NCBI GenBank assembly: GCA_022826945.1
Contig: JAJDTY010000080.1
Coordinates: 34,005 to 98,004, forward strand
Reading direction: 5' to 3'
Origin: Candidatus Binatia bacterium
Lineage (GTDB): Bacteria; Desulfobacterota; Binatia; Bin18
Length of the DNA: 64,000 bases
Of the stretch, positions 6,314 to 43,818 are shown one piece after another (within the stretch, counting starts at the first letter, position 1; each line of letters opens with the position of its first letter). The translations under genes and the position numbers were made by a program. Below the pieces are notes generated by a model. That model saw nothing but the letters and a program-made list of their open reading frames with translations, was not told the origin of the DNA and ran no database searches.

Positions 6314-7633
6314 ATGACCTGGCAAGCACAGTGGAGCGATAAACTGGTGAGCGCGGACGCCGCGCTCGACCGGATCGCGCCGACCGACCACGTTTTTACC
6401 GCCGGCCTAACCGGGACGCCGTTTACGCTGTGCCGGGCGCTGGTCGAAAACAGGGAACGCTTGCGGGGTCTGCGCCTCAACACGCTGATTTCCCTGTTTG
6501 ACTGGAATCTGCCCGGCCTCGACGCATACTTTCATTTCGAGTCGTGGTATCTGAGCCGGCGCGAACGGCCCCTGCTCTACCAGGGCAAGCTCGACTATGT
6601 GCCGGTTTCCTACTTCCGAGCGGAGGCCCTCCCCTACGGTATTGACGATCTGGACGTGTATCTGGTGACCGTGTCGCCGCCCGACCGGCACGGCAACTGT
6701 AGTTTTGGCACGTGCGTCGGCATGTCGCCGCTGATGACGCAGCGGGCCGCCCGGGTCATTGTCGAAGTTGACCCGAGTTTCGTCAGAACGGGCGGGACGA
6801 ACACGATTCATGTCTCGGAAATTGACTGCTTGGTCGAACGTCAGAGTCCGCCGGCCACGCTGGTCACACCCGAGACCTTTACTCAGGAAAAGCAGGACAT
6901 GATCGACGCCATCTGTATGCAGATCGCCAACGATTTGCTGGAAGATGGGGATACGATTCAGATTGGAGCGGGCGATATGACCAGCCCGCTGCTCGGTTAT
7001 GTGTATGGTCGGCGTGATCTCGGGATGCAGACCGAGATTATTCCGCCGGGGGTCGTGGCACTGGTGCGGGAAGGCATCCTGACCGGAACAAACAAGACTG
7101 TTCATCCGGGCAAAGTGGTGGGCACCGCCTTCCACCCGCAGTTGAGTGCTGAAGAGCTGGACTTTATTGACCGGAACCCGGTCTTTGAGCTGTACGATTT
7201 CAACTATACCGACGACATTCGGCTGCTGAGCAAAGACCCGCGCTTCACGGCCATCAATAATGCCTTGAGCGTTGATCTCACCGGACAGGTCGCGTCCGAA
7301 TCCATCGGCTGGCAGATGTTCACCGGCACGGGCGGCCAGACCGCGTTCGCCATTGCGGCCTGTCTGGCCGGCGGAAAATCCATTATTGCGGTGCCGTCGA
7401 GTTCGTTCCTCGATGGCGCGCGGATTTCCCGCATCGTGCCTACCTTGGCCCCCGGAACCGTTGTCACGACTCCGCGGGCTTTTGTGGACTATCTGGTCAC
7501 GGAATACGGGATCGCCACGTTGCGCGGCAAGAGTCTCCGCCAACGCGCACAGGCTCTGACCAGCGTGGCACATCCGGACTTTCGGGCCGAGCTGCAGGAA
7601 GAAGCGGAACGGATGTTTCATGGACAGGACTGA
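6314..7633 (+). CDS. Acetyl-CoA hydrolase/transferase family protein (4-hydroxybutyrate CoA-transferase-like)
   Basis: Family-typical C-terminal region 'GTGGQTAFAIAA' and 'VTEYGIATLRGKSLRQRAQALTSVAHPDFR'. Paralog of 45501..46745. Confidence 0.8.
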   Translation: MTWQAQWSDKLVSADAALDRIAPTDHVFTAGLTGTPFTLCRALVENRERLRGLRLNTLISLFDWNLPGLDAYFHFESWYLSRRERPLLYQGKLDYVPVSYFRAEALPYGIDDLDVYLVTVSPPDRHGNCSFGTCVGMSPLMTQRAARVIVEVDPSFVRTGGTNTIHVSEIDCLVERQSPPATLVTPETFTQEKQDMIDAICMQIANDLLEDGDTIQIGAGDMTSPLLGYVYGRRDLGMQTEIIPPGVVALVREGILTGTNKTVHPGKVVGTAFHPQLSAEELDFIDRNPVFELYDFNYTDDIRLLSKDPRFTAINNALSVDLTGQVASESIGWQMFTGTGGQTAFAIAACLAGGKSIIAVPSSSFLDGARISRIVPTLAPGTVVTTPRAFVDYLVTEYGIATLRGKSLRQRAQALTSVAHPDFRAELQEEAERMFHGQD

Positions 7634-10877: not shown

Positions 10878-11882
10878 TCAGCCCAAGCGCGGCTCGACCG
10901 CTTGGTGTAACGGCTGGAGGTCCGGTCGGCAGACGCCACAGGGCGCATAACCAATGGCTTCCGCTCGGGGACGTGAGGCGATGAATATACGATTCCCCGC
11001 CCGAGTACCCTTTGAAGCCTCACAGCTCGGTCGGCAAAATATCTGTTCCGTTTGCCGACCGACATAGAGCTGATCCTGGGCAATGGCAAAACCTGAGCGT
11101 GACGGAACAGTCGGTATGCCTTCAACCGTAAGAATATCCCGCTTGAGCGCGACTTTATTGCCGGCATAGCCGGTGAGGCTGCCATTACTGCCAACAATGC
11201 GGTGACAGGGAATCCGAATCGGCAGCGGATTGTAACGCAGGGCCTGCGCGACCGCCCGGACGGCTGTGGGCCGACCGATTCTCTCAGCCAGCCCTCCATA
11301 CGTTGTCAGGCTGCCATAAGGAATCTCACTCGCCGCCCGTAGGACCTGACGCTGAAAATCGCTCCGCATGAGGGCATCATCAATCACCCAATCAAGCGCT
11401 TGGCGCGAGCCGCTCAAGTATGCTTCAAGTTTCCAGGTCAGCGCCGCGATAGTGCCGCCATGACCTTGAGAGTGCTCAACCGCAAATTTTTCTCCGAACT
11501 CCTTTGCACTACCCCTGGGGTCGTCAGGAGAAACGAACTCAACCAGCGCCACTCCCTTATCCGTTGTGCCAATCCGCAGCGGCCCGATAGGTGAATCCCA
11601 GATGCTCAGGACGAGGCGCGGACGAGCGTCCGCAGTCAAGCGGGTCAACTGTCTGTCGAGTGCGCGTCGAGCTGAGGCGAGTCCGGTCTCCGGGGCGGGT
11701 AAAGAACCAAGCTGAAAGCGGATCTGTTTGTAGTGTTCCAAGAGCTGACCACAGTCGGGACAGGTGGTCAGGTGACGCTGGACTTTCTGCCGTATAAGCT
11801 GCGGATTTTCTCCGAGCGCTTCGGCGATAATATCGTCTTCCGCAAAGCCACATGCGAGCGTGTTACGCTTTTTGGTTGGCAT
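10878..11882 (-). CDS. Fusion protein: ZAS-type anti-sigma zinc finger + O6-alkylguanine-DNA alkyltransferase (Ogt) + Ada-type Cys4 methyl-acceptor zinc domain
   Basis: aa 37-44 'HLTTCPDC' (HxxxCxxC). aa 85-262 MGMT with 'IPCHRIVGSNGSLTGYAG' (Cys226 codon at 11205-11207). aa 283-318 'CRPSC...(27)...CGVCRP' fits the Ada_Zn_binding pattern. No TM helix. Overlaps the sigma gene by 20 nt. Confidence 0.8.
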   Translation of the reverse strand: MPTKKRNTLACGFAEDDIIAEALGENPQLIRQKVQRHLTTCPDCGQLLEHYKQIRFQLGSLPAPETGLASARRALDRQLTRLTADARPRLVLSIWDSPIGPLRIGTTDKGVALVEFVSPDDPRGSAKEFGEKFAVEHSQGHGGTIAALTWKLEAYLSGSRQALDWVIDDALMRSDFQRQVLRAASEIPYGSLTTYGGLAERIGRPTAVRAVAQALRYNPLPIRIPCHRIVGSNGSLTGYAGNKVALKRDILTVEGIPTVPSRSGFAIAQDQLYVGRQTEQIFCRPSCEASKGTRAGNRIFIASRPRAEAIGYAPCGVCRPDLQPLHQAVEPRLG

Positions 11883-12426
11883 GGCACCTCCTCTCTTCTC
11901 CTGTCGCGGTCTGTTGCCAGCAGGCGCGTAGCTTCTTCAGGGCTTGATACACATGCGCCCGGGCGCTGTCTTCAGAGCAGTCCAGGTTCTCGGCAATCTC
12001 CCGATAGGCGAGCCCTTCAAGCTGCCGCTGTATCAATGCTGTACGCTGTCGGAAGGGTAAGGCACTAATCGCGTTCAGGAGGAGTTGGGCTGTCTCTTGC
12101 GAGTGAAACGTCTGTTCTGGCGTTGTCGGATGAACTTTTGAGGAAGGTATGGGACCGTCCGCGACAAATACTTTTCGATAACGCTGGCGGCCACGGATAT
12201 AATTTCTTACGAGATTTGTTGCGATCCGAAAGAGCCAGGCCCGGTGGTTCGCATCAGTTGGCAGGTCGCCGTAGGCGCGATAGGCACGGAGGAAGGTCTC
12301 CTGAAACAACTCCTGCGCGTCGTCGTTGTTGCCCGTACAGCGGACGAGATAGCGATAGACGGCGCGCTGATGGAGATCGACGATCTCCTCAAATGCGCTC
12401 GCCGTGTTGCCGGATTGTTCTGTCAC
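11863..12426 (-). CDS. ECF-type RNA polymerase sigma-70 family factor
   Basis: Region 2 'HQRAVYRYLVRCTGNNDDAQELFQETFLRAYRAY'. Region 4 'LPFRQRTALIQRQLEGLAYREIAENLDCSEDSARAHVYQALKKLR'. GTG start. Confidence 0.85.
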   Translation of the reverse strand: MTEQSGNTASAFEEIVDLHQRAVYRYLVRCTGNNDDAQELFQETFLRAYRAYGDLPTDANHRAWLFRIATNLVRNYIRGRQRYRKVFVADGPIPSSKVHPTTPEQTFHSQETAQLLLNAISALPFRQRTALIQRQLEGLAYREIAENLDCSEDSARAHVYQALKKLRACWQQTATGEERRCHANQKA

Positions 12427-12912: not shown

Positions 12913-13569
12913 ATGGCCACAGGAATAGACATTCAATGGGAACGGAAAGATGGAGTTTTGGTTGCAGCGATCATTGGGCGTGTCGACGGCGGCAACGCCG
13001 ATGAATTTCAGCGCCTCTTGGAAACCGGCATTGAGCCGGGCGACAATGCCTTGATCCTGGACCTTGAACAACTGGCCTTCATTAGCAGTGCAGGTCTGCG
13101 GGTCGGTCTGATTATTGCCAGGAAATTCAACGAGCCGGGTAAGCGGTTTGGCGTTTGTACGCTCCCCACTCATGTTCGTGGGGTGATCACCGTCAGCGGC
13201 TTTGACCAGATGATTGCCGTGTATGAATCACGGGCCGCCGCACTCAGCGCAATCGCAGGGAGTCCTAGCAGTGATGGCGACGACCAAGAGCCAAAAACAG
13301 AAGAAAAAATGGCAACCATGAGAGGCGTCGTCGATTATGACATCGTGGGGAGTAACGTACAGGAGATTGCCGATTTTACCATCGAGAAATATGAATTCCG
13401 AAACAACACGACCCTCTCCGCCGAGATACGTGAGGAAGGGATCGCCCAAATCAAGGATGTGTTGTGGAAGCGGATTGAGCTCTTGAGACAGCGGCGCGAG
13501 CAGCTTCGGAAATCCATGTTCGACGCAGCGGAAGAGGCGCTTGCTGAATTTGTCGATAAGAAGTCGTGA
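12913..13569 (+). CDS. STAS-domain protein (anti-sigma-antagonist fold) with ~105-aa C-terminal extension
   Basis: 'ILDLEQLAFISSAGLRVGLIIARKF...GVITVSGFDQMIAVYESRAAAL' is a STAS core. Start at the ATG at 12913 after GGGAAGGAG. The acidic linker and helical tail have no family I recognise. Confidence 0.75.
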   Translation: MATGIDIQWERKDGVLVAAIIGRVDGGNADEFQRLLETGIEPGDNALILDLEQLAFISSAGLRVGLIIARKFNEPGKRFGVCTLPTHVRGVITVSGFDQMIAVYESRAAALSAIAGSPSSDGDDQEPKTEEKMATMRGVVDYDIVGSNVQEIADFTIEKYEFRNNTTLSAEIREEGIAQIKDVLWKRIELLRQRREQLRKSMFDAAEEALAEFVDKKS

Positions 13570-13580
13570 GGACAGCCAAC

Positions 13581-16080
13581 ATGGCTGACCCGTCCGTTGC
13601 TGACAGAAGGGTTGCGCCGCTCGTGGGAGCGCTGCCGCCGCACTGTCAGCAGGATGTCAATACCCTACGGAGATTCATTCATGCGACCGTCAGCCAGGAG
13701 TCGCCGGCCGAAGCCGTCCCTCCGACTGCCTTTCAAGAGGTCTTGCTGACCGGGGCGACCGGATTTGTCGGTCGCTTTTTCCTGCGTGACCTGCTGCGGC
13801 AGAAGGGCGGCCTGGTGGTGCACTGCCTCGTCCGGGCCGAGACTGTCGAGCATGGGTTTGCGCGTGTGCGGGCCGCCCTGGAGCAGGCAGACCTTTGGGA
13901 TGAGGCATTCACACCGCGCATCCGCATAGTGGTCGGTGATATCGGTCAGGCTCGATTCGGCCTCAGCGAAGCGGAGTTCGACGACCTCTGTCAGCGGATC
14001 GATGCCATCTATCATCTTGCCGCCGATCTGGCCCTGGCTTCGTCCTATCTCGCCATACGTAAGATCAACACGCTCAGTATGCAGAGTGTGTTCGAGCTGT
14101 GTTTGCGCGTCCGCTATAAGTATGTGTTCTACGCTTCGTCTATGGGTGTCTTCCCCCAGTATTTTTGCAGCTTCGCCAATGAGTTCAGCCAGAGCCGCAT
14201 TGACCATCAGATGCAGCCGGACCTCACCAGCATGAAAAAGATGTTCCCCCTCGGAGTCCTCGGCTATCCGTGGAGCAAGCTGGTGGTTGAGCAGAGTTTG
14301 TTGTTCGCGCACATGGCCGGTCTGCCTATGGCGATTTTCCGGCTGCCGCAAACCAGTCTGTCCAGTACGGGATTTCCTCAGGTGGACAATATCTCCATGC
14401 GTCTCTTTTCGGCAATGGTCGATGTTGAAATGGTGCTACAGGGTGTATCACTTCAGAGATACAACGAGCCGGTCGATACGCTGAGTCAGATATGCACGGC
14501 CATTTCGCTCAACCCGCGGCGACGGTTCACGATCTACCACTGCTGCGACCCGCGGCCAGCTCGTTGCGACCTCGAATTCGCCGATTTCGGCAACTATTTT
14601 CGTGAGGTTCCCTACGGGGTGTTCAAGCAGGCATGTCAGGCCCGTGGCGAGAACTCACCGCTGCATGGATACTGGGCCTTGCTTGATCATTTTGCGCCCT
14701 ATTGGTTCAGCGACCGTAGGGCAAGCGCCACCCTGCCCATCTGCGACCGTACTCTGCGTGAAGATTGTCCGCGTCCAATCAAATGGCCGGGCCTGTTGAC
14801 CAAGTATGCACGTGCCAACGATTGGGTGCAGCGTCATCGGCAACAGTGGCCGTATGCTGTCCGGCACGGTCGTGTGGACGCTGACTGTCTGCTCGCCCGA
14901 GCCAAGCACTATGCCGAGCGTATGAGTGTGCCCTTTGAACGGGCCTATCCCGAGTGGATACACCGCAGCCTGCATCGCTTGGTACAGGCGCTGAATGCGC
15001 CAGAGGCTCGGCTGCTGGAGGCGAAGCGGAGTTCCGTCGCCTACGGTTTGAGCCATCTCTTGGAGATGAATGCTGCGCTCACTCGTGAACGGCAGCAGCT
15101 CCCGGAGATCGAACGCGAGGAGATTGCTCGACCGGTTTTCATTGTCGGCATCAACCGGACTGGTACGACCCTGCTGCACCGCCTGTTGGCTCGGGACAAG
15201 CGCTGCTGGACGCTGCGAAGCTACGAGTTGCTTGAGCCGGTCCTGCCGACGGGCGAGTCTGCCACGTTAGCCGGTACACCGGCTGACCCGCGCCGGGCCT
15301 ACCTCGAAGATATGCTTGCCGCCTCAAAAATGGAGGAAGTCTTCAAGGGCATCCACCACGTTGATATCGACGAGCCGGAGGAGGATATCCAGCTTTTGCG
15401 ATTATCCTTCTCGTCCTGGGCTTCTACGGTTCAATACTACGTGCCGGATTTCGGTCAGTGGCTGGCAGCGACCAGTTCCCGGGATGCCTATGCCCACCAC
15501 CGTCGCACTCTACAGCATTTTACCTATCAACGCCGGCAGCGCGAGTCGCAGGGCCAGTGGGTCTTGAAGATGCCTTTTCATCTCATGGAGTTGGAGACCG
15601 TGATTGAGACCTATCCGGACGCCCTGTTCATTCAGACCCATCGAGACCCCACGCGGTTCATGGGCTCCTGGAACAGCCTGGTGGAACGGGTGCGCTCTCT
15701 GTCCAGTGAACCGCCCGCGCCACGACCTCGGCGCCGAACAACTAGCCTTCATGAGCGACATGCTTGATCGGGCAGTGCGCTTTCGCAGGACCCATCCCGA
15801 ACTGGAACACCGCTGGGTCGATGTGAACTATGCCGATCTGGTCGAGGAGCCGCTGGCCGTTGTCCGCACCATCTATGAGCGGTTCAATTGGCCGCTTGAG
15901 CGGGCGGCCATCAACGCTATGGATGACTGGTTGTTCCGGCAGGAAGAACAGCGACAACAGGAGGAGCGGCATCGCTACACCCTTGAGAAGTATGGTCTCA
16001 CGCCGGAGGCGGTCAATACTGCCTTTGCTCAGTACCGGGACTTTATCGCCACCCATGGGATTCGAGGGTTTCGTCTCTGA
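13581..16080 (+). CDS. Thioester-reductase (NAD_binding_4) / sulfotransferase fusion, interrupted by a +1 frame change near 15700-15720 (ORFs 13581..15767 and 15718..16080)
   Basis: R domain: 'LLTGATGFVGRFFLRDLL' and catalytic 'GYPWSK' (YxxxK). ST domain: PAPS 5'-phosphosulfate loop 'INRTGTTLLHRLL', 'WVLKMPFH', 'THRDP'. The ST C-terminus (LGAEQLAFMSDMLDRA...WVDVNYADLVEEPLAVVRTIYERFNWPL...HRYTLEKYGL) continues in the +1 frame. Confidence 0.8.
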
Positions 16081-16156
16081 TGCGGAGTGACGCACTGGCA
16101 AGGGAATCCGTGCGTAGCGAAATGTGATGCCGGGTGTTCCAGCAAAAGGGGAAAAA

Positions 16157-19100
16157 ATGAATACAGCGCCGTCCGACGGTGCAGTTGCCATCGTCGGGTA
16201 CAGTTATCGCATGCCGGGAGGAATCCGGACCGACGACGACCTCTGGCGTTTGCTAAGCGAACGCGAGATCGTCCAGGAGCCCATCACCGACCGCTACGGC
16301 AGAGGCTATCAGCCGATCGGCGGATTCTCCGGTCCAGGTCGATTTGCCAGTCCCTACGAAGGGCTGATTCGCGAGGAAGGGGAGCAGCAGATCGATCGGA
16401 GTCTCTTCGGAGTCTCTCGTAATGAAATGATGTATCTGGACCCGCAGGTGAGAATGTTGTTGAACTGCGCCTGGGAGACCTGTGAGCGGGCCGGCTGGGG
16501 TTTACACTCGTTGCGCAATAGTCCGACGGGTGTCTTCATTGGCGCACAGACGCCGGCGGTGGCGAACTGGCGGGCAATGCACGGCGTCAATGAGTTTTCC
16601 ATTCTCAGCATCGATCCGTCCATGATGGCCAACCGCATCTCCTACCATCTTAACCTGATGGGGCCGTCGATAGCCTGTTGCACGGCGTGTTCCGCCGGCC
16701 TGAGCGCTTTGCACACGGCGATGAATGCGATACAGCGCGGCGACTGTCACCAGGCCCTCGTCGGATCGGCCCAGTACCTGGGATCAGCCAGACTCAGTAG
16801 CGGCTTCAATGCGCTGGGGATCGTCAGCCCGGATGGCAAGTGTCATTCCTTTGACGCGGAAGCGAATGGCTACGTGCGTTCGGAAGGAGCATTTATCTTC
16901 GCGCTGAAGCCCCTGGAGGTGGCGGAAAGAGACGGAGATCGCATCTACGCCGTGGTGGAGGCGACCGCAGTCAATACGGCCGGGGCAGCCGACGGCACCG
17001 ATGGTCTGGCACAGGGGCGCTATATTACCGCGCCGACCCGCCACGCCCAGGTTGAGTTGATGCGTACCGCCTACACCCGCGCCGGGCGTGGGCCAGGAGA
17101 CTTTGATTATATTGAAGCCCATGCGACCGGCACCGTGGTCGGTGATCGTATGGAAGGCAACGCCATCGCAGAGGCGTTCGGCGGTGTCGACCGCGCGGTT
17201 CCGCTCCGAGTTTCCAGCGTCAAGAGCAATGTCGGGCATATGGAGGCCGCGGCGTTCCACTGCTCTCTGCTCAAGGTCATCCTGATGATGCAGCAGCGCA
17301 CATTTGCGCCGACCTCGAAGAATTTCCTGGTGCCGAATCCGGAGATTGACTTCGACCGGGTTCCCATGCAGGTGCAGACGGCCTGTGAACCCTTTCCCGA
17401 ACGGCCGGTCGTGGTGGGTATCAATTCGTTCGGCTTTGGTGGGGCCAACGGGCACTGCGTGGTGCGGGAATACCGCCCGGCCCAACCCCGGGTCTGGTCG
17501 GTGGCCCTGGCCCCGGAGGCCGGTTTCATGATTCCCCTGTCAGCCCGTACATCCGACGCACTAACGCAGAGCGCCCGACAGTTACGGGAAACGCTCGACA
17601 ACCAGGCGATAGACCTGTATACGCTGGCCGGCAACCTCAGCCGCCGCCGTACCCACTTCGCTACGCGTACGGCCTTGGCGGTTCGCAGCCAGAAAGAACT
17701 TACCGAGGCGCTAGACGCCTTCACGGAAGAGCCTACACCGGTCGCTGCCGTGGAAGAAGGCGAGAAGCGGCTGGCCATGGTATTCTCCGGTCAGGGGACG
17801 CAGTGGGCCGGTTGCGGTCGCGGGCTGTACGACACGGACCCTGTATTCCGCCGCGTGATCGATGCCATTGAGGGACACTGGCGGGAGCACTCGGACATCT
17901 CGCTGCGCGAGGCCTGTTTCTCGGCCAGCCAGGAAGAACTGAACGAAGTGCAACTGGCGCAGCCCGTCATTTTCATGTTGCAGTGCGCGCTGGTGGAGCT
18001 GTTCAAGACCTGGGGCGTGTATGCGGACTGCGTGGTTGGCCACAGTTCCGGCGAGGTCGCCGCAGCGTACGCCTGCGGAGCGCTTTCGCTGGCAGAAGCC
18101 ACGCGCCTGGTCTTCCATCGCGCCACCTTGCAACAGCGAACGGCCGGTTCCGGTCGTATGCTGGCGATCGGCCTCGACCGACCCGGTGTGGAGGACATAC
18201 TTGAAACGCTCCGCATTCCCTTCAGCACCGAGAATGGTCAGCCGACCCAGGTTGAGATCGCCTGCGAGAACGCACCGGCCAGTACCGTCATCTGCGGCAA
18301 GGAGGCTGCCTTGCAGCCCGTCATGGCGGAATTGGATGGGCGCAAGCTGCAACATCGGCTGCTTCCGGGTAATATTGCCTTCCATTCCAGTGCCATGGAC
18401 CCGCTCGAAGACGACGCCCTGGAGGCCCTGTCCTTTTTGAACGGCTGCGCCTTTGACGCCGATGTGCCATTCGTTTCTTCGGTCACCGGTGTGAAAACAG
18501 AGTGCCTGGACAACGCCTATTGGTGGTCAAATATCCGCCAGCCGGTACGGTTCGCGGCGGCCGTGGAAACCGTCAAGCGGGAGTATCAGGCTGACGTGAT
18601 ACTGGAAATCGCGCCGCATAGCGCCCTGCAACCCACTATTGCCCAGTGTCTGGAAGACGGCGTTCCGGTGCCGGCCTGCATTCCGACGCTCATGAGAGAT
18701 ACGGATGTCTGCCTCGGCTTTCACGAGGCTCTGGGTGCCCTTTTCCGGGCCGGCGTAGACCTGGATTTTGCGGCCCAGTATCCGCGCCCGGAGCCCATCG
18801 CCCATCTCCTGCCCGGCCATCCGCGAGAAGAGCGGGCGACAAAGGATGTCATGGCCGACAACGAGTTTCTTGTTCAACAGGGGGAGTACTCCCACGGCCC
18901 GCTGGTCGGGCACAAGGTTCCTTCTGACCACCTGCTCTTCGAAGCGCGGCTTTCGGAGAGGGACTTTCCCTGGTTGGCAGAGCACCGCGTCCATCATGCG
19001 TCGATCATTCCGGCAGCCGGCTATATTGAGTTGATCCTGCAGGCTCTTGAGGGCGTACCGGTCTATTGCGAAGAGATTGAATTCCTCCAGCCCTGTCCCA

Positions 19101-22100
19101 TCCCCAAAGCTCCGGTACGGCTGCAAACGGCCTTGTATCCGGTCGCTGGTGCCCCGGACGAGTTTACCTTCACCATTTCTTCCCGGTCGTACGACATCGA
19201 AAAGGAAAGTACGTTGCATTGCCGTGGCCAGGTGCGTCGGGTGAGTGAAGAACACACGGTGGACGTCCCAAGGCAACTGTCGGATATCGACACGACCGGC
19301 TTTGAGACCGCACCCTTTACGAAAGACGGCGAATTTTACGAGCACGTGGAGGGAATCCTCGGAGACGCCTTCCAATATGGTCCTTTTTTTCGGACCATCC
19401 AAAAGATCGATAAGGATAGGAAGTCCGAGCATCTTTTGGTTGACGTGGAGGTTGATGAGGAACTGTGGGCAACCGGCCGAGCGGAGGGGTATGTCTTGCT
19501 GCCGTCCTTAATCGACGGCGGGCTGCAGATCTTCCTGTACCATCTGATGCGTATCCCTGATCTTTTCTCCATGCCACAGCGAGCCCGGCACGTAACGTTT
19601 GTTCGTCCGCCGACAACGCAACGGATCACCTGTTATGTAGCAAAACCCGCCAATGAGTTGTTCGATATGATTGAAAAGGGGCAATATGCCGTTCATACCG
19701 GCGAGAGGTCCGGTGGCAGCATCAGTTTCTACGATAGCGCGACGGGATCTCTCATCGCCTATATCGAAGAATATCGCTCCTTCAACACCAATCCGAGATG
19801 GATCGACCTGCCGCACAGCAAACATATTGTCTCCTGGCAGCCCAGGTTCGTCCCCGACGCTCGGCCACTTGTGGACAGATTGCCAGACGGAGAGATCGAG
19901 CCGACCGCTTTGATTGCTGCTCTTGAGCAGTTCGACTGCGACGACCGCCATGCCTGCAATGCCGTTGAGTTCGCTGCCGGTCGAGAGCCCGACCAGACCA
20001 TCCTCAAACAATGTCTTGAGCATCTCTCGGGTACAGATAGCCAGACCGAATTCTGGCTCGTCGGTGACAGTGAAGAAGGGACTCAGGCGCACTACGATGC
20101 CTTCAATCAAAATGATGCCACCCTGCGTTTCGAGCGCCTTGATCTGTCCGCCCAGCCAGCGCCGGAACTGAATGCCGGCCTGCTGCGTCCGGGTGTCGCC
20201 GATATCCTGTTCCTGCATGGGGAGGCCGTTGCGTTCGGACTGGAGGACTGGCGATTCTGGCGCCGGTTGGCGGTCGCTGGTGGTCTGGCGCTAGTCTGCC
20301 ACGACGAGGGCGAGGTGATCACACCAGGCGACGGATGGACCATCGTCCGTGCTGGACAGCGTACGACCCTGCTGCAAGCGCCGCAGTCCTATGCTCTTGA
20401 CGCAACGGACAGGCCAGGACCGCGCTGGGTGCTGGGTGAGTCGGAGAGTTGGGCTGCGGACTGGGTGTCTCTGCTCAATGCGCCCGAGGTGTCCCCGATT
20501 TCCTATGACTCCCTTCGGAGCGGTGATTTCCATGCGCTCGAGGAATGGTCGCAAGTGGCCGATGTGCAAGCGATTGACTTCTTCTGTGGGACAGACCCGC
20601 AGGACCCGACAGGGGAAAAGGTGGTATCGCGCTGCGTCGCCTTTATCCAGGCATTGGTCTCCTCCAGAATCGAGCAGGCGAACGACAGGTGCCGCTTGAC
20701 CGTGATCACACGCCGGGCGGCCTACGATGTGGAAGAGCCACGCGGACATGCGCTGTGGGGAGTGGTACGCAGTATGGCCGCCGAAGTCGATGAGGAGGCC
20801 AAGCTCGACTTCCGCCTAGTGGACTTGGGTGCCTCCGACGACTTGGAGACCTTGGCTTGGCTGGGTCGGTGCGATGTGCGGGAGCGTGAACTGGCGGTAC
20901 GGCAGCAACGCGTGTGGGCTCCGCGGTTGGTCAGTATTCGGAAGCGATTTCCTCACGTTTCTGCCGGTGAGGAGCCTGCCTACCGACTCTGCTTGGACAA
21001 TCCGGGACAGGTCGGCGGTTTGCAGATGAAGACGTACGAACCCGCGGCACTGGGAGCGCGAGACGTGGAGATCGAAGTGGCGGCGGCCGCGCTTAACTTC
21101 CGGGACGTCATGGTCACGCTGGGGTTGTTGCCGGCCCTGTCATACGAACGCTCTGCGCTTGGGCGTGAAGTCGGCATCGAGGCCAGCGGTGTCGTTCGCC
21201 GTGTCGGCTCGGCGGTGCGCTGGCACTCCGTCGGTGACGCAGTGGCATTCACCAAGGGGGGGTGTATTGCCAATCGTGTGGTGGTTGACGAGCATCTCGT
21301 TTTTGCCAAGCCCGCCCGCTTGAGTATGGAGGAGGCTGCCTCGTCGTTATCGGCCTACGTGACCGCCTACTATGCCCTGAGACATCTAGCGCGCCTCGGG
21401 AAGGGCCAACGGGTGCTGATCCACTCGGCTATGGGCGGAGTCGGCCAGGCTGCCATTGCCCTAGCCAAACATGTCGGAGCGGAAATCTACGCCACTGCGG
21501 GCAGCGAGAGCAAGCGAGCGCAATTGTTGGCGCTGGGCGTCCGTGCGGCCTTCGATTCTCACAGCTACGATTGGTACGACGACGTCATGGTGGCGACCGG
21601 AGGCGAGGGCGTTGACATCGTGTTGAATTCCCTGGCCGGTCGCCATATTGCCCTGTGTCTGGAGGCCTTACGGCCGGGTGGCTGGCACTGCGAGATTGGC
21701 AAGGTCGATATCTACGCCGACAATGCACTCAGCCTGCGTGTCTTTCGCAAGAACCTGCGCTTTGTGGCGATTGACGTTGATCGTCTCATGATGGACGACC
21801 CGGCCCTCTCGCACCAACTCTCTCGGGCCTGCCTGGACCTGCTTGACCGAGGCGCGGTACCGCCATTGCCGGTCACGGTCTTTCCGTACAAGGACTATGA
21901 TAAGGCCCTGCGTTTGATGATCAACGGCCAACACCAGGGAAAATTGGTCCTGACGGCCCCGCCGGCGTCTGTCGGTCCTGACTTCCCGATTGCCGACCGA
22001 CGGCCATTTCTCGATCCCGATGCGACCTACCTTGTGACCGGCGGCCTGGGTGGTCTCGGCCTGCGCTTTTTGCCCTATCTGGTCGCTTCGGGGGCACGCC

Positions 22101-23227
22101 ATCTCACCTTGATGGACCGCGATCCCGAGCGCCGTCGGAGCGTTGATTGGGTCCGTCAGTCGAGTACTCTGGCCGACATGGATGAAGAGGTCGAGATCGG
22201 CATTGTTGCGGGTGATGTGGCGGAAGAGGCCGATGTCCAGCGCTGTATCGCTCAACTGCACCGGCCGCTCAAGGGTGTGTTCCACCTCGCCGGTGTGCTG
22301 GATGACCGTTATCTGGCCGACATGTCGCCCGAATCCCTGACAAGGGTATTCGCGTCCAAGGCCTATGGCGCTCTCCATCTTCACCGGGCGACAGCTGGCT
22401 GCCCACTTGAGCATTTTGTTCTGTTCTCCTCTATGGCCTCGACCTTTGGCAACCCCGGACAAATCAATTACAGCGCCGCCAATGCTTTCTTAGACGGGTT
22501 GGCTGCCTATCGCCGTCGGCAGAGCCTGCCGGGTTTGGCTTACAACCTCGCTGCCGTTACGGAAGTCGGCATGGCCGCGCGGAATGCCCAGTTGTTGCGC
22601 ATGATGAGGACTGCCGGCCTGCCTCCGGTCAGCAGCGATTTTGCCATTACCAACCTCGATTACGCCATGCGGACGATGTCTGACCGGGACCATTTGGTCA
22701 CCGCCCTGTTCAAGCGTCCGCCGTGGACGGTTGACTCTCTGGACTATATGCGGAGTGGCCGTTTGCTGACCAATCAGGACGCCTTCCGAGTGAATGCAGA
22801 CGGCCAACTGACACTTGACAGCGTGGTGGCGCAGATCGCCGACAAGGTCGCCGAACTCTGCGGTCATGACGAGGGTGGTGTGGAGGAACCATTGTCCAGT
22901 TTTGGGCTCACGTCGATCTCGGTCGCCGAGTTGGGGACGTTCATCCTGACGCAATTCAACTACCAGGTCAGCGCGCTCGAACTGATGACTACGGCCTCCG
23001 CGCTGTCGTTGGCTCACGATATCATCTACGGCAAGAAGGACGCTGAAGAAGGTCAGACCGAGACGGAGACGGACGGGCCTGAGGAGGCGTCTCTCGTTGT
23101 ACAACCGCGCGTCCGCCGCGTGCCGTCGGCTTTCGCCAGCGCGATTGAAGACCACTTTCCGCAGGGGAACGGCGTGCCCCATGGGAGCGGCGTGGAACCG
23201 AGTCCTTTCGCCATCCACTCACCCTGA
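16157..23227 (+). CDS. Single-module, fully reducing type I polyketide synthase (KS-AT-DH-psiMT/psiKR-ER-KR-ACP), MAS/FAS-like, probably iterative
   Basis: All catalytic motifs are found (see the domain features). Start at the ATG at 16157 (MNTAPSDGAVAIVGYSYRMPGG). No TE or R domain in cis. Confidence 0.95.
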   Translation: MNTAPSDGAVAIVGYSYRMPGGIRTDDDLWRLLSEREIVQEPITDRYGRGYQPIGGFSGPGRFASPYEGLIREEGEQQIDRSLFGVSRNEMMYLDPQVRMLLNCAWETCERAGWGLHSLRNSPTGVFIGAQTPAVANWRAMHGVNEFSILSIDPSMMANRISYHLNLMGPSIACCTACSAGLSALHTAMNAIQRGDCHQALVGSAQYLGSARLSSGFNALGIVSPDGKCHSFDAEANGYVRSEGAFIFALKPLEVAERDGDRIYAVVEATAVNTAGAADGTDGLAQGRYITAPTRHAQVELMRTAYTRAGRGPGDFDYIEAHATGTVVGDRMEGNAIAEAFGGVDRAVPLRVSSVKSNVGHMEAAAFHCSLLKVILMMQQRTFAPTSKNFLVPNPEIDFDRVPMQVQTACEPFPERPVVVGINSFGFGGANGHCVVREYRPAQPRVWSVALAPEAGFMIPLSARTSDALTQSARQLRETLDNQAIDLYTLAGNLSRRRTHFATRTALAVRSQKELTEALDAFTEEPTPVAAVEEGEKRLAMVFSGQGTQWAGCGRGLYDTDPVFRRVIDAIEGHWREHSDISLREACFSASQEELNEVQLAQPVIFMLQCALVELFKTWGVYADCVVGHSSGEVAAAYACGALSLAEATRLVFHRATLQQRTAGSGRMLAIGLDRPGVEDILETLRIPFSTENGQPTQVEIACENAPASTVICGKEAALQPVMAELDGRKLQHRLLPGNIAFHSSAMDPLEDDALEALSFLNGCAFDADVPFVSSVTGVKTECLDNAYWWSNIRQPVRFAAAVETVKREYQADVILEIAPHSALQPTIAQCLEDGVPVPACIPTLMRDTDVCLGFHEALGALFRAGVDLDFAAQYPRPEPIAHLLPGHPREERATKDVMADNEFLVQQGEYSHGPLVGHKVPSDHLLFEARLSERDFPWLAEHRVHHASIIPAAGYIELILQALEGVPVYCEEIEFLQPCPIPKAPVRLQTALYPVAGAPDEFTFTISSRSYDIEKESTLHCRGQVRRVSEEHTVDVPRQLSDIDTTGFETAPFTKDGEFYEHVEGILGDAFQYGPFFRTIQKIDKDRKSEHLLVDVEVDEELWATGRAEGYVLLPSLIDGGLQIFLYHLMRIPDLFSMPQRARHVTFVRPPTTQRITCYVAKPANELFDMIEKGQYAVHTGERSGGSISFYDSATGSLIAYIEEYRSFNTNPRWIDLPHSKHIVSWQPRFVPDARPLVDRLPDGEIEPTALIAALEQFDCDDRHACNAVEFAAGREPDQTILKQCLEHLSGTDSQTEFWLVGDSEEGTQAHYDAFNQNDATLRFERLDLSAQPAPELNAGLLRPGVADILFLHGEAVAFGLEDWRFWRRLAVAGGLALVCHDEGEVITPGDGWTIVRAGQRTTLLQAPQSYALDATDRPGPRWVLGESESWAADWVSLLNAPEVSPISYDSLRSGDFHALEEWSQVADVQAIDFFCGTDPQDPTGEKVVSRCVAFIQALVSSRIEQANDRCRLTVITRRAAYDVEEPRGHALWGVVRSMAAEVDEEAKLDFRLVDLGASDDLETLAWLGRCDVRERELAVRQQRVWAPRLVSIRKRFPHVSAGEEPAYRLCLDNPGQVGGLQMKTYEPAALGARDVEIEVAAAALNFRDVMVTLGLLPALSYERSALGREVGIEASGVVRRVGSAVRWHSVGDAVAFTKGGCIANRVVVDEHLVFAKPARLSMEEAASSLSAYVTAYYALRHLARLGKGQRVLIHSAMGGVGQAAIALAKHVGAEIYATAGSESKRAQLLALGVRAAFDSHSYDWYDDVMVATGGEGVDIVLNSLAGRHIALCLEALRPGGWHCEIGKVDIYADNALSLRVFRKNLRFVAIDVDRLMMDDPALSHQLSRACLDLLDRGAVPPLPVTVFPYKDYDKALRLMINGQHQGKLVLTAPPASVGPDFPIADRRPFLDPDATYLVTGGLGGLGLRFLPYLVASGARHLTLMDRDPERRRSVDWVRQSSTLADMDEEVEIGIVAGDVAEEADVQRCIAQLHRPLKGVFHLAGVLDDRYLADMSPESLTRVFASKAYGALHLHRATAGCPLEHFVLFSSMASTFGNPGQINYSAANAFLDGLAAYRRRQSLPGLAYNLAAVTEVGMAARNAQLLRMMRTAGLPPVSSDFAITNLDYAMRTMSDRDHLVTALFKRPPWTVDSLDYMRSGRLLTNQDAFRVNADGQLTLDSVVAQIADKVAELCGHDEGGVEEPLSSFGLTSISVAELGTFILTQFNYQVSALELMTTASALSLAHDIIYGKKDAEEGQTETETDGPEEASLVVQPRVRRVPSAFASAIEDHFPQGNGVPHGSGVEPSPFAIHSP
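16184..17467 (+). other. PKS ketosynthase domain
   Basis: 'ACCTACSAGL' (Cys codon at 16688-16690), 'EAHATGT', 'SNVGHMEAAA'. Confidence 0.9.
17768..18673 (+). other. PKS acyltransferase domain (malonyl-type signature)
   Basis: 'VFSGQGTQW', 'GHSSGEVAAAYA', and 'IAFHS' (xAFH rather than YASH). Confidence 0.85.
18866..19768 (+). other. PKS dehydratase domain
   Basis: 'LAEHRVHHASIIPAAGYIE' (catalytic His) and 'LIDGGLQ' (DxxxQ). Confidence 0.8.
19886..20953 (+). other. Structural psi-methyltransferase / psi-KR interdomain region
   Basis: ~355 aa between DH and ER. 'NAVEFAAGREPDQT' sits where a SAM-binding 'VLEIGAGTG' would be, so the motif is degenerate. Confidence 0.5.
20975..21958 (+). other. 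PKS enoylreductase domain
   Basis: 'VEIEVAAAALNFRDVM', 'LIHSAMGGVGQAAIALAKHVGAEIYATAGS'. Confidence 0.85.
22019..22573 (+). other. PKS ketoreductase catalytic domain
   Basis: 'TYLVTGGLGGLGLRF', 'FSSMASTFGNPGQINYSAANAFLD'. Confidence 0.85.
22805..23038 (+). other. PKS acyl carrier protein domain
   Basis: 'LSSFGLTSISVAEL'. The phosphopantetheine Ser codon is at 22913-22915, and the motif reads TSI rather than DSL. A ~60-aa acidic/Pro-rich tail follows. Confidence 0.75.
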
Positions 23228-23252
23228 AGGTGAAGGAGAGGAGAACATCGCC

Positions 23253-24992
23253 ATGCCGAATGCACTTTTGGTGTATCCCGAAAACCCCCCTGCCTACTGG
23301 GGGGCGAAATATGCTCTGGAGATGCTTGGTATAAAGGCAGCCTTTCCCCCCTTAGGTCTGCTCACCATCGCCGCGATGTTTCCACCGGAATACGACCTCC
23401 GCGTCGTGGATATGAATGTGTCTCCCCTGGAGGACTCGGACCTGGAATGGGCGGATATGGTGTTTACCTCCACCATGATCGTTCAGCGAGTCTCTCTGCA
23501 AACCATCATTGAGCGATGCAACCGGGCCGGGGTTCTCGTGGTGGCCGGGGGGCCTCATCCCACCACATATCATGATGAGATCACAGGCGTGGATCATTTC
23601 GTGCTGGATGAGGCAGAGGAGATCTTTCCCGGATTTCTGCGCGACCTGGAAAACGGCATGGCCAAAGCCATGTATCGCGAGCCGCGCAAGCCGGATGTGA
23701 CGCAGACCCCCATTCCACGCTTCGACCTCATCGATATGGAGCACTATTACTCCATGAGCGTGCAGTTCTCGCGCGGGTGTCCGTTCGACTGTGAGTTCTG
23801 CGACATTACCAAGCTCTACGGGCGGGTGCCCAGGACCAAGTCGCCAGAGCAAATGGTGAACGAGTTCGAAGCCCTGTATGGACTGGGCTGGCGAGGTCCT
23901 TTGCTTCTGGTTGACGACAACTTCATTGGCAACAAGCGAGATGCCTTGAAACTCCTGCCGGAGATCGCCGAGTGGCAAAAGGCCCGTGGATATCCCTTCT
24001 CCCTCTTCACGGAAGCGACGGTGAATCTGGCCCGCATGGATGAACTGATGGACCTCATGGTCGAGGCGGGTTTCAATTCCGTATTTTTGGGCATTGAAAC
24101 GCCCAATCCCAAGGCATTGCTCAAGACGAAGAAACCACAAAACGTCAACAAGCAGGAAGAGCATTTCCTTTTGAATGCTGTTCGTAAAATCCAGCACAAA
24201 GGGATGCAGGTCCAAGGAGGATTCATCCTAGGTCTGGATGAAGATGACGAGGGCGTGTTTGACGCCCAGATCGATTTTATTCAGGCTGCCGGCATTCCCA
24301 TGGCCCCGATCTATATGTTGGCTGCTCTGAAGAATACGAATCTATATAATCGCCTGAAGTCGGAGAACCGGCTTTTGGACGTACCCATTGAAATTGACGC
24401 CACAGCCCTCAACTTCAAGCCGGAGCTGAATCCCAAGACGTTGATCGAGGGATATCGACGCGTGACCACCACCATTTACGACCCAACGCTTGAGCATTAC
24501 TTCAAGCGCTGCCTGACGTTATTTGAGCACCTCGCGCCCGTCCCGCACCTGCAAAAGCCGAGGAGTAAGAACACTCTTTTTTTGGCTCTGATGAGCGTAC
24601 GCCGCCGGCTTTCCTCCAGGCAACTTCCGGCCTACAACAAGTTCATTGCCAAGGTCTCCAAGGACCATCCCCGTATGCTCCCGGAGGCGATCAGTCTGGC
24701 CGCTATGGGCTACCACTTTGAAAAGGTCACCCGTCAGCAGATTGCGATCCGCGAGTTCAAGGAGTTTTTGACGGCCGAATTGAAGGGGTTCAAGGAAGCG
24801 GCCTCGCATCAGTCACGGGAAGTGGAAAAAATCCAGAAACAGCAGCAGGAGTTGCTCGCGCGAGTCCAGGCGCGCTACAAATCGATACCTGACGATTTTC
24901 GATACCAGGGAGATGGAATCGAGCCGACTCTGGAGGCCTTCCGAAGCGCGGTGAATACACAGGCAGACCACCTCACTCACGCGGCGGTATAA
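23253..24992 (+). CDS. B12-binding-domain radical SAM protein (class B, DUF4070-type C-terminus)
   Basis: N-terminal cobalamin-binding Rossmann region (LGLLTIAAMFPPEYDLRVVDMN...VVAGGPHPT). Radical SAM cluster 'SRGCPFDCEFCDI' (CxxxCxxC). AAGGAGAGGAG RBS. Confidence 0.85.
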   Translation: MPNALLVYPENPPAYWGAKYALEMLGIKAAFPPLGLLTIAAMFPPEYDLRVVDMNVSPLEDSDLEWADMVFTSTMIVQRVSLQTIIERCNRAGVLVVAGGPHPTTYHDEITGVDHFVLDEAEEIFPGFLRDLENGMAKAMYREPRKPDVTQTPIPRFDLIDMEHYYSMSVQFSRGCPFDCEFCDITKLYGRVPRTKSPEQMVNEFEALYGLGWRGPLLLVDDNFIGNKRDALKLLPEIAEWQKARGYPFSLFTEATVNLARMDELMDLMVEAGFNSVFLGIETPNPKALLKTKKPQNVNKQEEHFLLNAVRKIQHKGMQVQGGFILGLDEDDEGVFDAQIDFIQAAGIPMAPIYMLAALKNTNLYNRLKSENRLLDVPIEIDATALNFKPELNPKTLIEGYRRVTTTIYDPTLEHYFKRCLTLFEHLAPVPHLQKPRSKNTLFLALMSVRRRLSSRQLPAYNKFIAKVSKDHPRMLPEAISLAAMGYHFEKVTRQQIAIREFKEFLTAELKGFKEAASHQSREVEKIQKQQQELLARVQARYKSIPDDFRYQGDGIEPTLEAFRSAVNTQADHLTHAAV

Positions 24993-25095
24993 GGAGCAGG
25001 ACGTACTTGCATGGGCACTCGAAGACCACTTCCCGCCGGAGGCGAGTGTTGGAGCGGAGCTAGTCCAAGCCGTGGCTATCGGGTAGCAGTATCAG

Positions 25096-25857
25096 ATGGA
25101 TCGGGAATCGGATTGTGAGGCCGCAGGGAGTGAGGCGGGTATGTCCTCAACGGATGAATGTTGGTGGCGTCCGTTCAGGAAAACCGACAGGGCTGCTGTC
25201 TATCATGTTGATCTGACACCTCATGCGGCCCGCGAGCGAGCCGCCGTGGCCTGGCTCGACAAGCAAGAACATGTGCGTTGGCAGCGCTACCCGTATGCGC
25301 GTCCTCGGCGCGAGTTTGCCCTGTGCCGCGCAGCGCTCCGTGCCCTGCTGTGTGGTCGGCTCGATTGTCGCAATGATGAATTAGCCTTTGGTGCCTCGCA
25401 GTATGGAAAGCCGTTTGCCTTTGTGAGTGGGACGCCGGTGCCCATCAGCTTTAATATCAGTCACAGCGGCGCGCACGGATTGATCGCGTTTGCAGCAGCC
25501 GGCCGTATCGGGGTGGATGTGGAGGAGCGGGTCACTCGTCGCGATCTTGACGGAATAAGCCAGACGGTCTTTACGCCGGGCGAACGCGCGGCGCTGGCCG
25601 CGACGAGTGGAGAGCGGAAGGTCCACCTGTTCTTCAGTCTGTGGACGCTGAAGGAAGCGCTGATTAAGGCGCTCGGTCCGGGCTTTTCTTTGGACCCGTC
25701 CCGATTCGAGATTCCAGCGGCCATGTGTCGCGGCCTGCCTACCAGCGTCTTTCGGTTCCCTCACCTCCCCGCGGCCAGTTGGCGGCTCGAAAATCTGGAC
25801 AACACCGCTTTTGCCGCCGCCATCGCCCATGAACTGGGACTCGGTCCCACAGAGTAA
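25096..25857 (+). CDS. Sfp-type 4'-phosphopantetheinyl transferase
   Basis: 'FNISHSG', 'GVDVEE', 'FSLWTLKEALIKALG'. The start is uncertain (25096 or 25141). Confidence 0.85.
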   Translation: MDRESDCEAAGSEAGMSSTDECWWRPFRKTDRAAVYHVDLTPHAARERAAVAWLDKQEHVRWQRYPYARPRREFALCRAALRALLCGRLDCRNDELAFGASQYGKPFAFVSGTPVPISFNISHSGAHGLIAFAAAGRIGVDVEERVTRRDLDGISQTVFTPGERAALAATSGERKVHLFFSLWTLKEALIKALGPGFSLDPSRFEIPAAMCRGLPTSVFRFPHLPAASWRLENLDNTAFAAAIAHELGLGPTE

Positions 25858-25956: not shown

Positions 25957-27210
25957 TCAAGCCTTTTGATGCAGTCCGTCGTCGGTCCGACGTTCCTCGT
26001 GGGTCGGTCGCTCACCCACGCCTGGCTGGGTGAGAACTCGCCAGTAGGCTCCAAGAAAAATGAGAAACGCCCCTGACCACAGGAGAACGGAGACGGTGAC
26101 TGCAAGTGACTCTGCCTCTGGTATGACGAGGGGACCGAAGACGCGCACCACCGCTGCCAGGTGAACCAGCACGAATGTCGCCGTCTCCGCCTGCCCGCCC
26201 GAGATTGCACGGCCCGTGTAGGTCTGGGCACTGCGCGTCATCATCCCCAGCAGCATCCCGCTCATTGCTCCCATTTTCAGCCCGTAAAAGACGACGGTCT
26301 CCGGTATGTCGGCACCCGTCAGCCCCAGGGCGTGCAACACCAGCGACACCGGCAGCCACGCATAGGACAGGACCAGGACCCACAGCAAGGGTTCGCGTAG
26401 CGTCGAGGTCGGGTCCCAGAGCCACAGACGGATACTGTGCGCAACCGCCCCGATCATCGCGACCGCGGCCAGCCCCAGGTTCCCGCCCAACCACCCTGCG
26501 CCAGCGACCCCGGCAAGAGCGAGCACGCCGAGCGAACCGAAGGCCATGAGGTCCACGTACCGATTCTGCCGCGGCCGTGCCCCTGGAACCAGGCTGGGAA
26601 TGAGGTCTGGAATCAGCCGTCCCCCGCTCAGCGCGATCAGGATAAAGGACAGGTCTTGCGCCAGCGTTGCGTCCCGGCCGGTAATCAGATCGGTATAATT
26701 CAGATGGAACAGCAGGTTGGCCAGCGCGAGCAGGGCCGGCACGGCCACCACCAAGAGGAGACGGTAGAAGCGGGGTCTGAGGGCCGGGCTGGCGGAGAGC
26801 AGGCGGCGGAGCCTGATGGCCGGGCCGGCGAAGACCATCGAGACACCGACCAGGAAGAGACAGTCAACCGCAATAGCCGGGACTGCCGGGCCGGTGACTA
26901 CCAGAATACGACCCAAGACCCAGAGGCCGACCAGCGCGGCGAGCCGAGCGCCCGACAGGGGCGGCAGACTGCTTCGAGCCGGCACTGCCGTCAGCAGGAG
27001 CCCGGTCAGGCCGGCAGCAACGAGCCCGAAGACCATCTCATGGGTATGCCAGGCTGAACCGGTAAGATATCCGTCGGCGAGCAAGCGACCGGGCCAGAGT
27101 TGCCACACGGGAAAGGCGACCGTGCCAAACACCGCCGCCAACAGGTAGAAGGGCCGAAACCCCATACGGAATATGGGAACCGGACAGAGACGTTGGGGCT
27201 CGTCACGCAT
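25957..27210 (-). CDS. NnrS family membrane protein
   Basis: 'FRMGFRPFYLLAAVFGTVAFPVWQ' followed by about 12 hydrophobic segments, as in the NnrS family. Confidence 0.75.
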   Translation of the reverse strand: MRDEPQRLCPVPIFRMGFRPFYLLAAVFGTVAFPVWQLWPGRLLADGYLTGSAWHTHEMVFGLVAAGLTGLLLTAVPARSSLPPLSGARLAALVGLWVLGRILVVTGPAVPAIAVDCLFLVGVSMVFAGPAIRLRRLLSASPALRPRFYRLLLVVAVPALLALANLLFHLNYTDLITGRDATLAQDLSFILIALSGGRLIPDLIPSLVPGARPRQNRYVDLMAFGSLGVLALAGVAGAGWLGGNLGLAAVAMIGAVAHSIRLWLWDPTSTLREPLLWVLVLSYAWLPVSLVLHALGLTGADIPETVVFYGLKMGAMSGMLLGMMTRSAQTYTGRAISGGQAETATFVLVHLAAVVRVFGPLVIPEAESLAVTVSVLLWSGAFLIFLGAYWRVLTQPGVGERPTHEERRTDDGLHQKA

Positions 27211-43667: not shown

Positions 43668-43818
43668 ACAACCCTCATACACGAGAAAAAAGATTTGGGC
43701 TGACCGCTCGGTCAGGTTGATCTTCGTTCTCCCGCCCCGTAATATAGCTCATCAGGCCGATACGTGCTCAAGGGGGAGGGCGGAGTGAGCGAATATAAGC
43801 GCGCAGGAAGGATAACCA

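Follow-up and report, generated by a model that had tools for sequence, protein, structure and literature searches.

A swf-type synthase, reductase-sulfotransferase and radical SAM operon in a Candidatus Binatia bacterium

The swf family and the closest described systems

The swf gene cluster was described and named in 2013 from symbionts of marine sponges (Della Sala et al. 2013, Environ Microbiol Rep 5:809; PMC3908369). Judging from its sequence, the five-gene operon considered here, found at positions 12913 to 25857 of a 64,000-nucleotide (nt) stretch of a Candidatus Binatia contig (JAJDTY010000080.1, positions 34,005 to 98,004; hereafter the window), almost certainly belongs to this family. 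In the original description, swfA encodes a polyketide synthase (PKS) with the domain order ketosynthase (KS), acyltransferase (AT), dehydratase (DH), enoylreductase (ER), ketoreductase (KR) and acyl carrier protein (ACP), swfB a fusion of a reductase (R) with a sulphotransferase (ST), and swfC a B12-dependent radical S-adenosylmethionine (SAM) enzyme (PMC3908369). An alkyl sulfate product, possibly methylated by SwfC, was already proposed in that study. The published gene orders are A-B-C, A-C-B and A-B, swfC being absent from fosmid PSA11D7, and SwfA is recognised by DPQ(I/V)R in place of DPQQR, HATGT in place of HGTGT, the AT motifs GHSSGE and IAFH, and a unique QCALVEL sequence (PMC3908369). 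In bacteria-rich marine sponges, PKS amplicons are dominated by two families, of which swf is one. The original assignment of the cluster to Poribacteria was withdrawn in a 2014 paper, and swf-like clusters were later reported in metagenome-assembled genomes (MAGs) of Nitrospirota, Latescibacterota and Acidobacteriota (2022) and in 'Thalassonella' (Tectomicrobia; 2023). Literature searches to 2026 found no product assigned to swf, and papers to 2023 call its function unknown.

Several better characterised systems share parts of this architecture. By NCBIfam and PDB, Pks2 and mycocerosic acid synthase (MAS) are the nearest PKS relatives of SwfA. Pks2 belongs to the mycobacterial sulfolipid-1 pathway, and its product is esterified to sulfated trehalose. 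The reductase half of SwfB has the Rossmann fold and the TGxxGxxG/Tyr/Lys motifs of MxaA (PDB 4u7w/4w4t), the activity of which is the reductive release of a chain from a carrier protein. However, MxaA is the last domain of a PKS-nonribosomal peptide synthetase, whereas the free-standing SwfB is proposed to act in trans, and identity between the two is 26-28%. The sulfotransferase half has PAPS (3'-phosphoadenosine-5'-phosphosulfate)-binding loops in common with Stf1 and Stf9. These are stand-alone enzymes without a linked R domain, and their physiological acceptors are, to our knowledge, not established. CurM and the olefin synthases (OLS) also pair a type I PKS with a sulfotransferase that uses PAPS, but there the ST lies in cis and is followed by a thioesterase (TE), the beta-hydroxyl is sulfated and the sulfate leaves. 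An ST-TE alkene module of this kind can be ruled out for the present operon, in which Pfam detects no TE and the ST is fused to R on a separate protein. Finally, coccidian multimodular type I fatty acid synthases (FAS)/PKSs with a C-terminal R-ST didomain are the only other proteins in which R and ST are contiguous, a likeness known from the description in PMC3908369; there, the didomain is fused in cis to a giant eukaryotic synthase.

The operon of the Binatia contig and its assignment to swf

The five genes of the operon are listed below, with gene starts picked to agree with homologues.

12913..13569, + strand: STAS-domain protein, 218 amino acids (aa) (Pfam STAS, E 3e-13; NCBIfam ant_ant_sig match)
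13581..16080, + strand: swfB, R-ST fusion (Pfam NAD_binding_4, thioester reductase type, and Sulfotransfer_3, over two frames)
16157..23227, + strand: swfA, 2356-aa single-module type I PKS/FAS (Pfam KS-AT-DH-ER-KR-ACP)
23253..24992, + strand: swfC, class B radical SAM enzyme (Pfam B12-binding, Radical_SAM and DUF4070)
25096..25857, + strand: Sfp/HetI-type 4'-phosphopantetheinyl transferase (PPTase) (Pfam ACPS and AASDHPPT_N; NCBIfam HetI-like below cut-off)

An earlier sequence-only reading of this DNA had described five co-directional, tightly packed genes. The open reading frame (ORF) listing and Pfam bear this out, with intergenic gaps of 11, 76, 25 and 103 nt as claimed, and Pfam confirms the domain calls then made, a degenerate methyltransferase in SwfA apart. 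For none of the five proteins does any NCBIfam model reach its cut-off. GC content is level across the region.

The sequence hallmarks published for swf are found at this locus. SwfA has the domain order KS-AT-DH-ER-KR-ACP without any further catalytic domain, and carries DPQVR (residue 95), HATGT (322), QCALVEL (609), GHSSGE (628) and IAFH (740). In full-length SwfA homologues from the genome loci described below (n=64), HATGT, GHSSGE and IAFH are found in 64/64 and QCALVE in 49/64, while DPQQR and HGTGT occur in none (0/64). An R-ST fusion is encoded 76 nt upstream of swfA, although its reading frame is broken, and SwfC combines the CX3CX2C motif with the B12-binding, Radical_SAM and DUF4070 domains. 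The likeness to the published cluster thus covers the three core genes, their domain orders, the SwfA motifs, the R-ST fusion, the B12 radical SAM enzyme and the proposed chemistry; moreover, STAS/POR_0546-like ORFs adjoin swfA in the published fosmid (PMC3908369). The window differs from it by the order STAS-swfB-swfA-swfC-PPTase, by the Sfp-type PPTase within the operon and by the frameshift in swfB. The assignment is based on motifs, domain architecture and gene content rather than on direct comparison with the type sequences PS11G3, PSA11D7 and POR_0547-0550.

The sequence-only reading had presented the operon as an unrecognised orphan gene set. This was wrong, since the same three-gene core was named swf in 2013, together with the same hypothesis of alkyl sulphate formation and methylation (PMC3908369). 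The operon is therefore a rediscovery of a named cluster family along with its published hypothesis. As to the literature match to a characterised cluster that the sequence-only reading had taken into account, the cluster is indeed described, but its product is not characterised. What is new here is the order STAS-B-A-C-PPTase, the PPTase in the operon, the restriction of the STAS protein to certain lineages, the optional character of swfC, the linkage to cysN/cysC and the 2-nt deletion in swfB.

The closest solved structure to SwfA is that of mycocerosic acid synthase (9d2z, E 3e-219), which supports the earlier description of SwfA as a MAS/FAS-like iterative module. In agreement with the same reading, Pfam finds no thioesterase or other release domain in the protein. 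As a Pks2 equivalog (NCBIfam NF041183), SwfA was rejected, with 885.9 bits for a curated cut-off of 2400. Between DH and ER, a region of ~340 aa (residues ~1170-1510, nt ~19665-20690) shows 68% mean column identity across homologues and makes SwfA ~230 aa longer than mycocerosic acid synthase. This region has no Pfam match even at E 10, and a profile of 12 sequences has no PDB match. Read by eye, VEFAGxREP in this region may occupy the position of methyltransferase motif I, without the glycines. The degenerate in-cis methyltransferase of the sequence-only reading is a guess, neither confirmed nor rejected by these searches.

Once its frame is repaired, SwfB has over 750 homologues, which are 58-98% identical to it and hardly vary in length (~835 aa). 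Among solved structures, the R half comes nearest to the myxalamid terminal reductase (4u7w, E 2e-39), which is a structural match too, followed by the PKS thioreductase 8v1x from Streptomyces. Across 78 sequences, the TGxTGFxG motif for nucleotide binding and the residues Ser191, Tyr234 and Lys238 are invariant. In R domains, such conservation speaks for redox activity and against a non-redox cyclase. For the ST half, the best relatives are Stf1 (2zq5, E 2.5e-36, TM 0.84) and Stf9 (2z6v, E 2e-28, TM 0.80). The PAPS-binding loops NRTGTT and HRxP...S, as well as several acidic and histidine residues, are invariant in the same number of sequences (78). The OLS sulfotransferase (4gox) is a distant structural match (E 5e-4) that the sequence search did not find. 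These results agree with the earlier statement that the ST is organised unlike that of CurM/Ols, SwfB having an ST of the mycobacterial Stf1/Stf9 type. The catalytic residues of both halves are kept across at least 12 phylum-level lineages.

In SwfC, the cluster motif CPFDCEFC is found in 48/51 homologues. The protein is 72-79% identical to SwfC of other loci, and the PDB sequence search returned weak relatives only (9ccb and CysS 9n1b). In the tree published in 2013, SwfC groups with radical SAM methylases (PMC3908369).

Distribution and conservation of the locus

A scan of one genome per species gave 191 loci; the counts given below cover the best 80 of them, all from MAGs. The window proteins were run by tblastn against these 80 loci, 63 of which have full 10-kb flanks (complete loci). 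The lineages represented are Nitrospirales, Latescibacterota, Acidobacteriota, many Alphaproteobacteria, Gammaproteobacteria, Binatia, Gemmatimonadota, Tectimicrobiota, Poriferihabitaceae and others, the swf-bearing MAGs belonging to at least 12 phylum-level lineages. These include the phyla in which swf-like clusters were later reported, namely Nitrospirota, Latescibacterota, Acidobacteriota and Tectomicrobia. Marine sponges are indicated as the source by several MAG names or source studies (Poriferihabitaceae; a Langseth sponge-ground MAG), this being for most loci a reading based on names.

swfA adjoins swfB in 75/80 loci and in 63/63 complete loci, the five loci without swfA being truncated contigs. 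swfC is found in 58/80 loci (45/63 complete loci) and the STAS protein in 32/80 (28/63). The PPTase is found in none (0/80 and 0/63), by tblastn and phmmer. Because the R-ST fusion has more than 750 homologues and the PKS adjoins it in 75/80 loci, the arrangement is far beyond chance. Thus, the swf core consists of swfA and swfB, while swfC and the STAS protein are optional. The co-conservation expected by the sequence-only reading is accordingly strong for the PKS and the R-ST protein and holds mostly for the radical SAM enzyme, but it is limited to some lineages for the STAS protein and to the lineage of the window for the PPTase. Beyond swfA, swfB, swfC and the STAS gene, no family is common to more than 19/83 loci.

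Gene order sets the window apart. In each of the 80 loci swfB lies 3' of swfA, the arrangement being A-C-B, A-B, or A-B with an inverted C. Outside the window, STAS-B-A-C-PPTase is seen in just three contigs, the metagenomic L081, L082 and L083. These are the closest relatives of the window (SwfB identity 98%, 86% and 77%, respectively) and have its ECF sigma and NnrS flanks in common with it. A PPTase gene is found at the same position in L083.

The STAS protein begins with a SpoIIAA-like anti-sigma-antagonist domain, after which come a disordered linker and, towards the C-terminus, two long helices (the 'POR_0546-like' part). In an AlphaFold2 (AF2) model (pLDDT 84), the N-terminal domain matches SpoIIAA (1th8_B, E 6e-9), and the C-terminal helices have no PDB match. 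The segment ISSAGLR, which coincides with the site of the phosphorylatable serine, does not vary among 31 homologues. The protein is absent from the proteobacterial loci (0/37, including two of Poriferihabitaceae) and nearly always present in Nitrospirota, Latescibacterota and Binatia. Its homologues are of three kinds: two-domain proteins of 215-223 aa, as in the window; STAS-only proteins of 126 aa; and proteins of 213 aa (P0156, P0173, P0176 and P0181), in which a STAS domain up to 83% identical is joined to another N-terminal domain of ~95 aa, without the helical tail. As the STAS domain is found with differing partner domains, it seems to have been recombined as a module. The scanned neighbours of the STAS gene include no SpoIIAB/RsbW-like kinase, and an ECF sigma gene adjoins it, in divergent orientation, only in the lineage of the window. 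The STAS protein is a lineage-restricted accessory, which may be regulatory or a protein-protein adaptor. The same association can be recognised in the 2013 fosmid, where ORF15 (the same protein) and the split ORF18/19 adjoin swfA. POR_0546 precedes POR_0547. These ORFs were listed in Table 1 as 'anti-anti-sigma factor'/POR_0546 homologues and were not counted in the operon (PMC3908369).

Some loci carry further genes of possible relevance near swfB. A cysN/cysC fusion, combining the GTPase subunit of sulfate adenylyltransferase with adenosine-5'-phosphosulfate kinase (PAPS synthesis), lies 0.3-0.6 kb 3' of swfB in 10 Nitrospirales loci, and one alphaproteobacterial locus has it 4 kb away. Sequence motifs read by eye place it at L001 13050-14624, L004 13111-14916, L012 13121-14926, L017 12794-14380 and L047 16450-18468; the further loci are L003, L006, L008, L014, L022 and L031. 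The same motif reading of neighbours showed no cysD beside the fusion in swf loci. By sequence reading, an MFS transporter gene was found within a few kb of swfB in 10 loci, mostly of Acidobacteriota and Latescibacterota (L010, L013, L023, L025-L028, L038, L040, L071), and an RND-type pump near swfB in 11 loci, mostly of Alphaproteobacteria (L042, L045-L047, L052, L055, L062, L066, L069, L073, L076). These putative transporters are possible exporters, compatible with the export of an amphiphile and not specific to it.

In the window, the operon is flanked by ordinary chromosomal genes. Its immediate neighbours are:

10878-12426, - strand: Ada-like methyltransferase and ECF sigma factor, upstream of the STAS gene and divergent from it
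25957-27210, - strand: NnrS, on the downstream flank of the operon

Farther downstream lie genes for RecA, alanyl-tRNA synthetase, PhoH, Lnt, RF-2 and MiaB. Among named homologues of this RecA, those of Candidatus Binatia MAGs come nearest, at 82-84% identity, which points tentatively to a Binatia-like host. The Ada/ECF sigma and NnrS flanks are syntenic in the close relatives L082 and L083 and missing from the remaining 80 loci. Between the ECF sigma and STAS genes there are 486 nt without any Rfam match; more generally, the scans of the 64-kb window returned no tRNA gene, no Rfam family reached its gathering threshold, and no riboswitch lies ahead of the operon. A scan for promoters and terminators returned sites no more numerous than in shuffled sequence. 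Elsewhere in the window, a pair of paralogous genes at 6314-7633 and 45501-46745 encodes acetyl-CoA hydrolases/transferases, and a gene for a CoA-transferase lies at 42261-43682.

A proposed route to an alkyl sulfate and its alternatives

From domain content, conservation of catalytic residues, gene linkage and the phosphopantetheinylation of the SwfA ACP reported in the literature, which are directly supported, we infer every chemical step and the product of the following pathway. The Sfp-type PPTase of the operon, which presumably activates the SwfA ACP, would turn it into the holo form; the ACP is known to be activated by the Sfp-type Svp and not by E. coli AcpS (PMC3908369). SwfA, fed with malonyl units, would then iterate with full KR, DH and ER reduction to give a saturated acyl-S-ACP. 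As SwfA has no thioesterase, release of the chain would fall to the SwfB R domain, which would use NAD(P)H and lead, probably via the aldehyde, to the primary alcohol. The fused Stf1/Stf9-like ST would move sulfate from PAPS to this alcohol, yielding a long-chain alkyl sulfate. SwfC would be an optional tailoring enzyme, most plausibly methylating an unactivated carbon; that swfC is optional (45/63) is as expected of a tailoring enzyme. The STAS protein would stand beside the pathway as a lineage-restricted accessory. The domain and conservation evidence is consistent with the chemical logic set out in the sequence-only reading, that is, an iterative saturated acyl-ACP, reductive release, O-sulfation and a radical SAM enzyme as possible C-methylase. 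Taken as a whole, the mechanism leading from SwfA, SwfB and SwfC to a long-chain alkyl sulfate appears to us somewhat more probable than its negation; a primary alkyl sulfate as what the family finally makes is at best marginally favoured, or an even call.

Several observations weigh against this pathway. According to the literature, no widespread alkyl sulfates are known from sponges, and the product has never been detected for any swf cluster. When a swf cluster was expressed in E. coli BAP1, no new metabolite appeared (PMC3908369). In the AF2 model of SwfB, residues 187-256, which hold Ser191, Tyr234 and Lys238, have a pLDDT of 30-37, though their sequence is highly conserved; no other long stretch within the R domain is modelled with such low confidence. 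It could be that a mobile lid or substrate loop is formed here, or that the score reflects the limit of a shallow alignment. Moreover, sequence cannot separate two-electron from four-electron reduction by the R domain. SwfC has no close characterised relative, so that methylation is only the commonest precedent for its enzyme class. As the Nitrospirales loci have wider conserved synteny, the linkage to cysN/cysC amounts to about two independent events and lends weak support. Lastly, the copy of swfB in the window is either inactive at the sulfation step or mis-assembled.

Other fates of the chain can be proposed. Sulfation could serve as activation, the alkyl sulfate made by SwfB being an intermediate from which the sulfate leaves, either to form a terminal alkene or with transfer of the alkyl group to an ether, an amine or a C-C bond, possibly with SwfC, so that the final product would be free of sulfate. 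Such a scheme would explain why no widespread alkyl sulfates are reported from sponges, it has a leaving-group precedent in the curacin and olefin synthases (cited in PMC3908369), and the OLS ST is, as noted above, a distant structural match. However, the ST of SwfB is much nearer to Stf1/Stf9 than to CurM/OLS, and no thioesterase or other conserved partner using a sulfate ester is linked to swf; apart from swfA, swfB, swfC and the STAS gene, no family exceeds 19/83 loci. In addition, the decarboxylative elimination of CurM requires a beta-sulfated carboxylate, which reductive release does not yield. We consider this scheme unlikely, and to a similar degree the possibility that R stops at the aldehyde while ST acts on another hydroxyl (mid-chain or beta, left by skipped DH or ER steps) or on another acceptor, giving a sulfated hydroxy-aldehyde or a similar compound. 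It is true that an iterative PKS may leave out reductive steps, a point made for SwfA in PMC3908369, that the second-best relative of R (8v1x) is a PKS thioreductase, and that the toxadocials are sponge metabolites built from sulfated long-chain aldehydes. Nevertheless, among solved R domains the myxalamid terminal reductase comes closest, and the covalent R-ST fusion is found in more than 750 homologues at ~835 aa; its retention at constant length points most simply to a hand-over of the R product to ST. The myxalamid enzyme is said to have been found by Barajas and colleagues in 2015 to reduce fully to the alcohol. A system of the WcbR/RkpA type, making the lipid part of a capsular polysaccharide or lipopolysaccharide, is highly improbable: the first swf copy was originally so annotated (PMC3908369) and the PKSs are of similar single-module architecture, but those of WcbR/RkpA keep DPQQR and HGTGT, which none of the 64 SwfA homologues does, and form a separate KS clade (PMC3908369); nor are conserved capsule or glycosyltransferase genes found around swf.

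The route from acyl-ACP to alkyl sulfate could also be broken in the genome of the window itself. The frameshift mentioned in the sequence-only reading lies in the ST part of the R-ST gene: relative to L081, swfB lacks 2 nt (CG) between 15711 and 15712, within the CG-rich short repeat AACCGCGCCCGCGCC. Frame 0 is closed by a stop at 15767, beyond which the final third of the ST domain is read in the +1 frame, to 16080. If the deletion were real, ST would be cut after residue ~716, and the operon would be a recent pseudogene operon or would make only the unsulfated alcohol or aldehyde. The repeat is a plausible slippage site, and the relatives L081, L082 and L083 are without the deletion, their swfB being intact (833, 834 and 832 aa, respectively). 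On the other hand, this is the only indel in a 10.5 kb alignment to L081 at 96.5% DNA identity, all other genes of the operon are intact with their catalytic motifs, and the 120 ST residues that would be lost are conserved. In the genome published first, swfA is split in a similar way, which was put down to sequencing error (PMC3908369). We therefore regard a truly broken pathway as a serious possibility, albeit one that falls clearly short of even.

The window locus leaves the question of the swf product unanswered 13 years on, and the comparative data sharpen it. The presence of a PPTase in the operon of the window lineage bears on the only published expression attempt, in E. coli BAP1, which failed. 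In a broader and more doubtful view, which we put forward only tentatively, swf would make a long-chain, optionally methyl-branched alkyl sulfate, an anionic surfactant-like lipid that would have been missed by the work-ups used for sponge lipids (saponification, methylation). Horizontal spread through at least 12 phylum-level lineages of sponge symbionts would fit a symbiosis factor, and the STAS protein would be a true fourth component in some lineages, for instance by docking on the SwfA ACP, for which the STAS-ACP complex of YchM (PDB 3ny7) is a precedent, or by signal coupling. In this view, the window lineage, with a PPTase of its own in the operon, would offer the best template for expressing the pathway. 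If the family does make an alkyl sulfate, this would represent a new class of bacterial lipid, and possibly a biomarker or a symbiosis factor.

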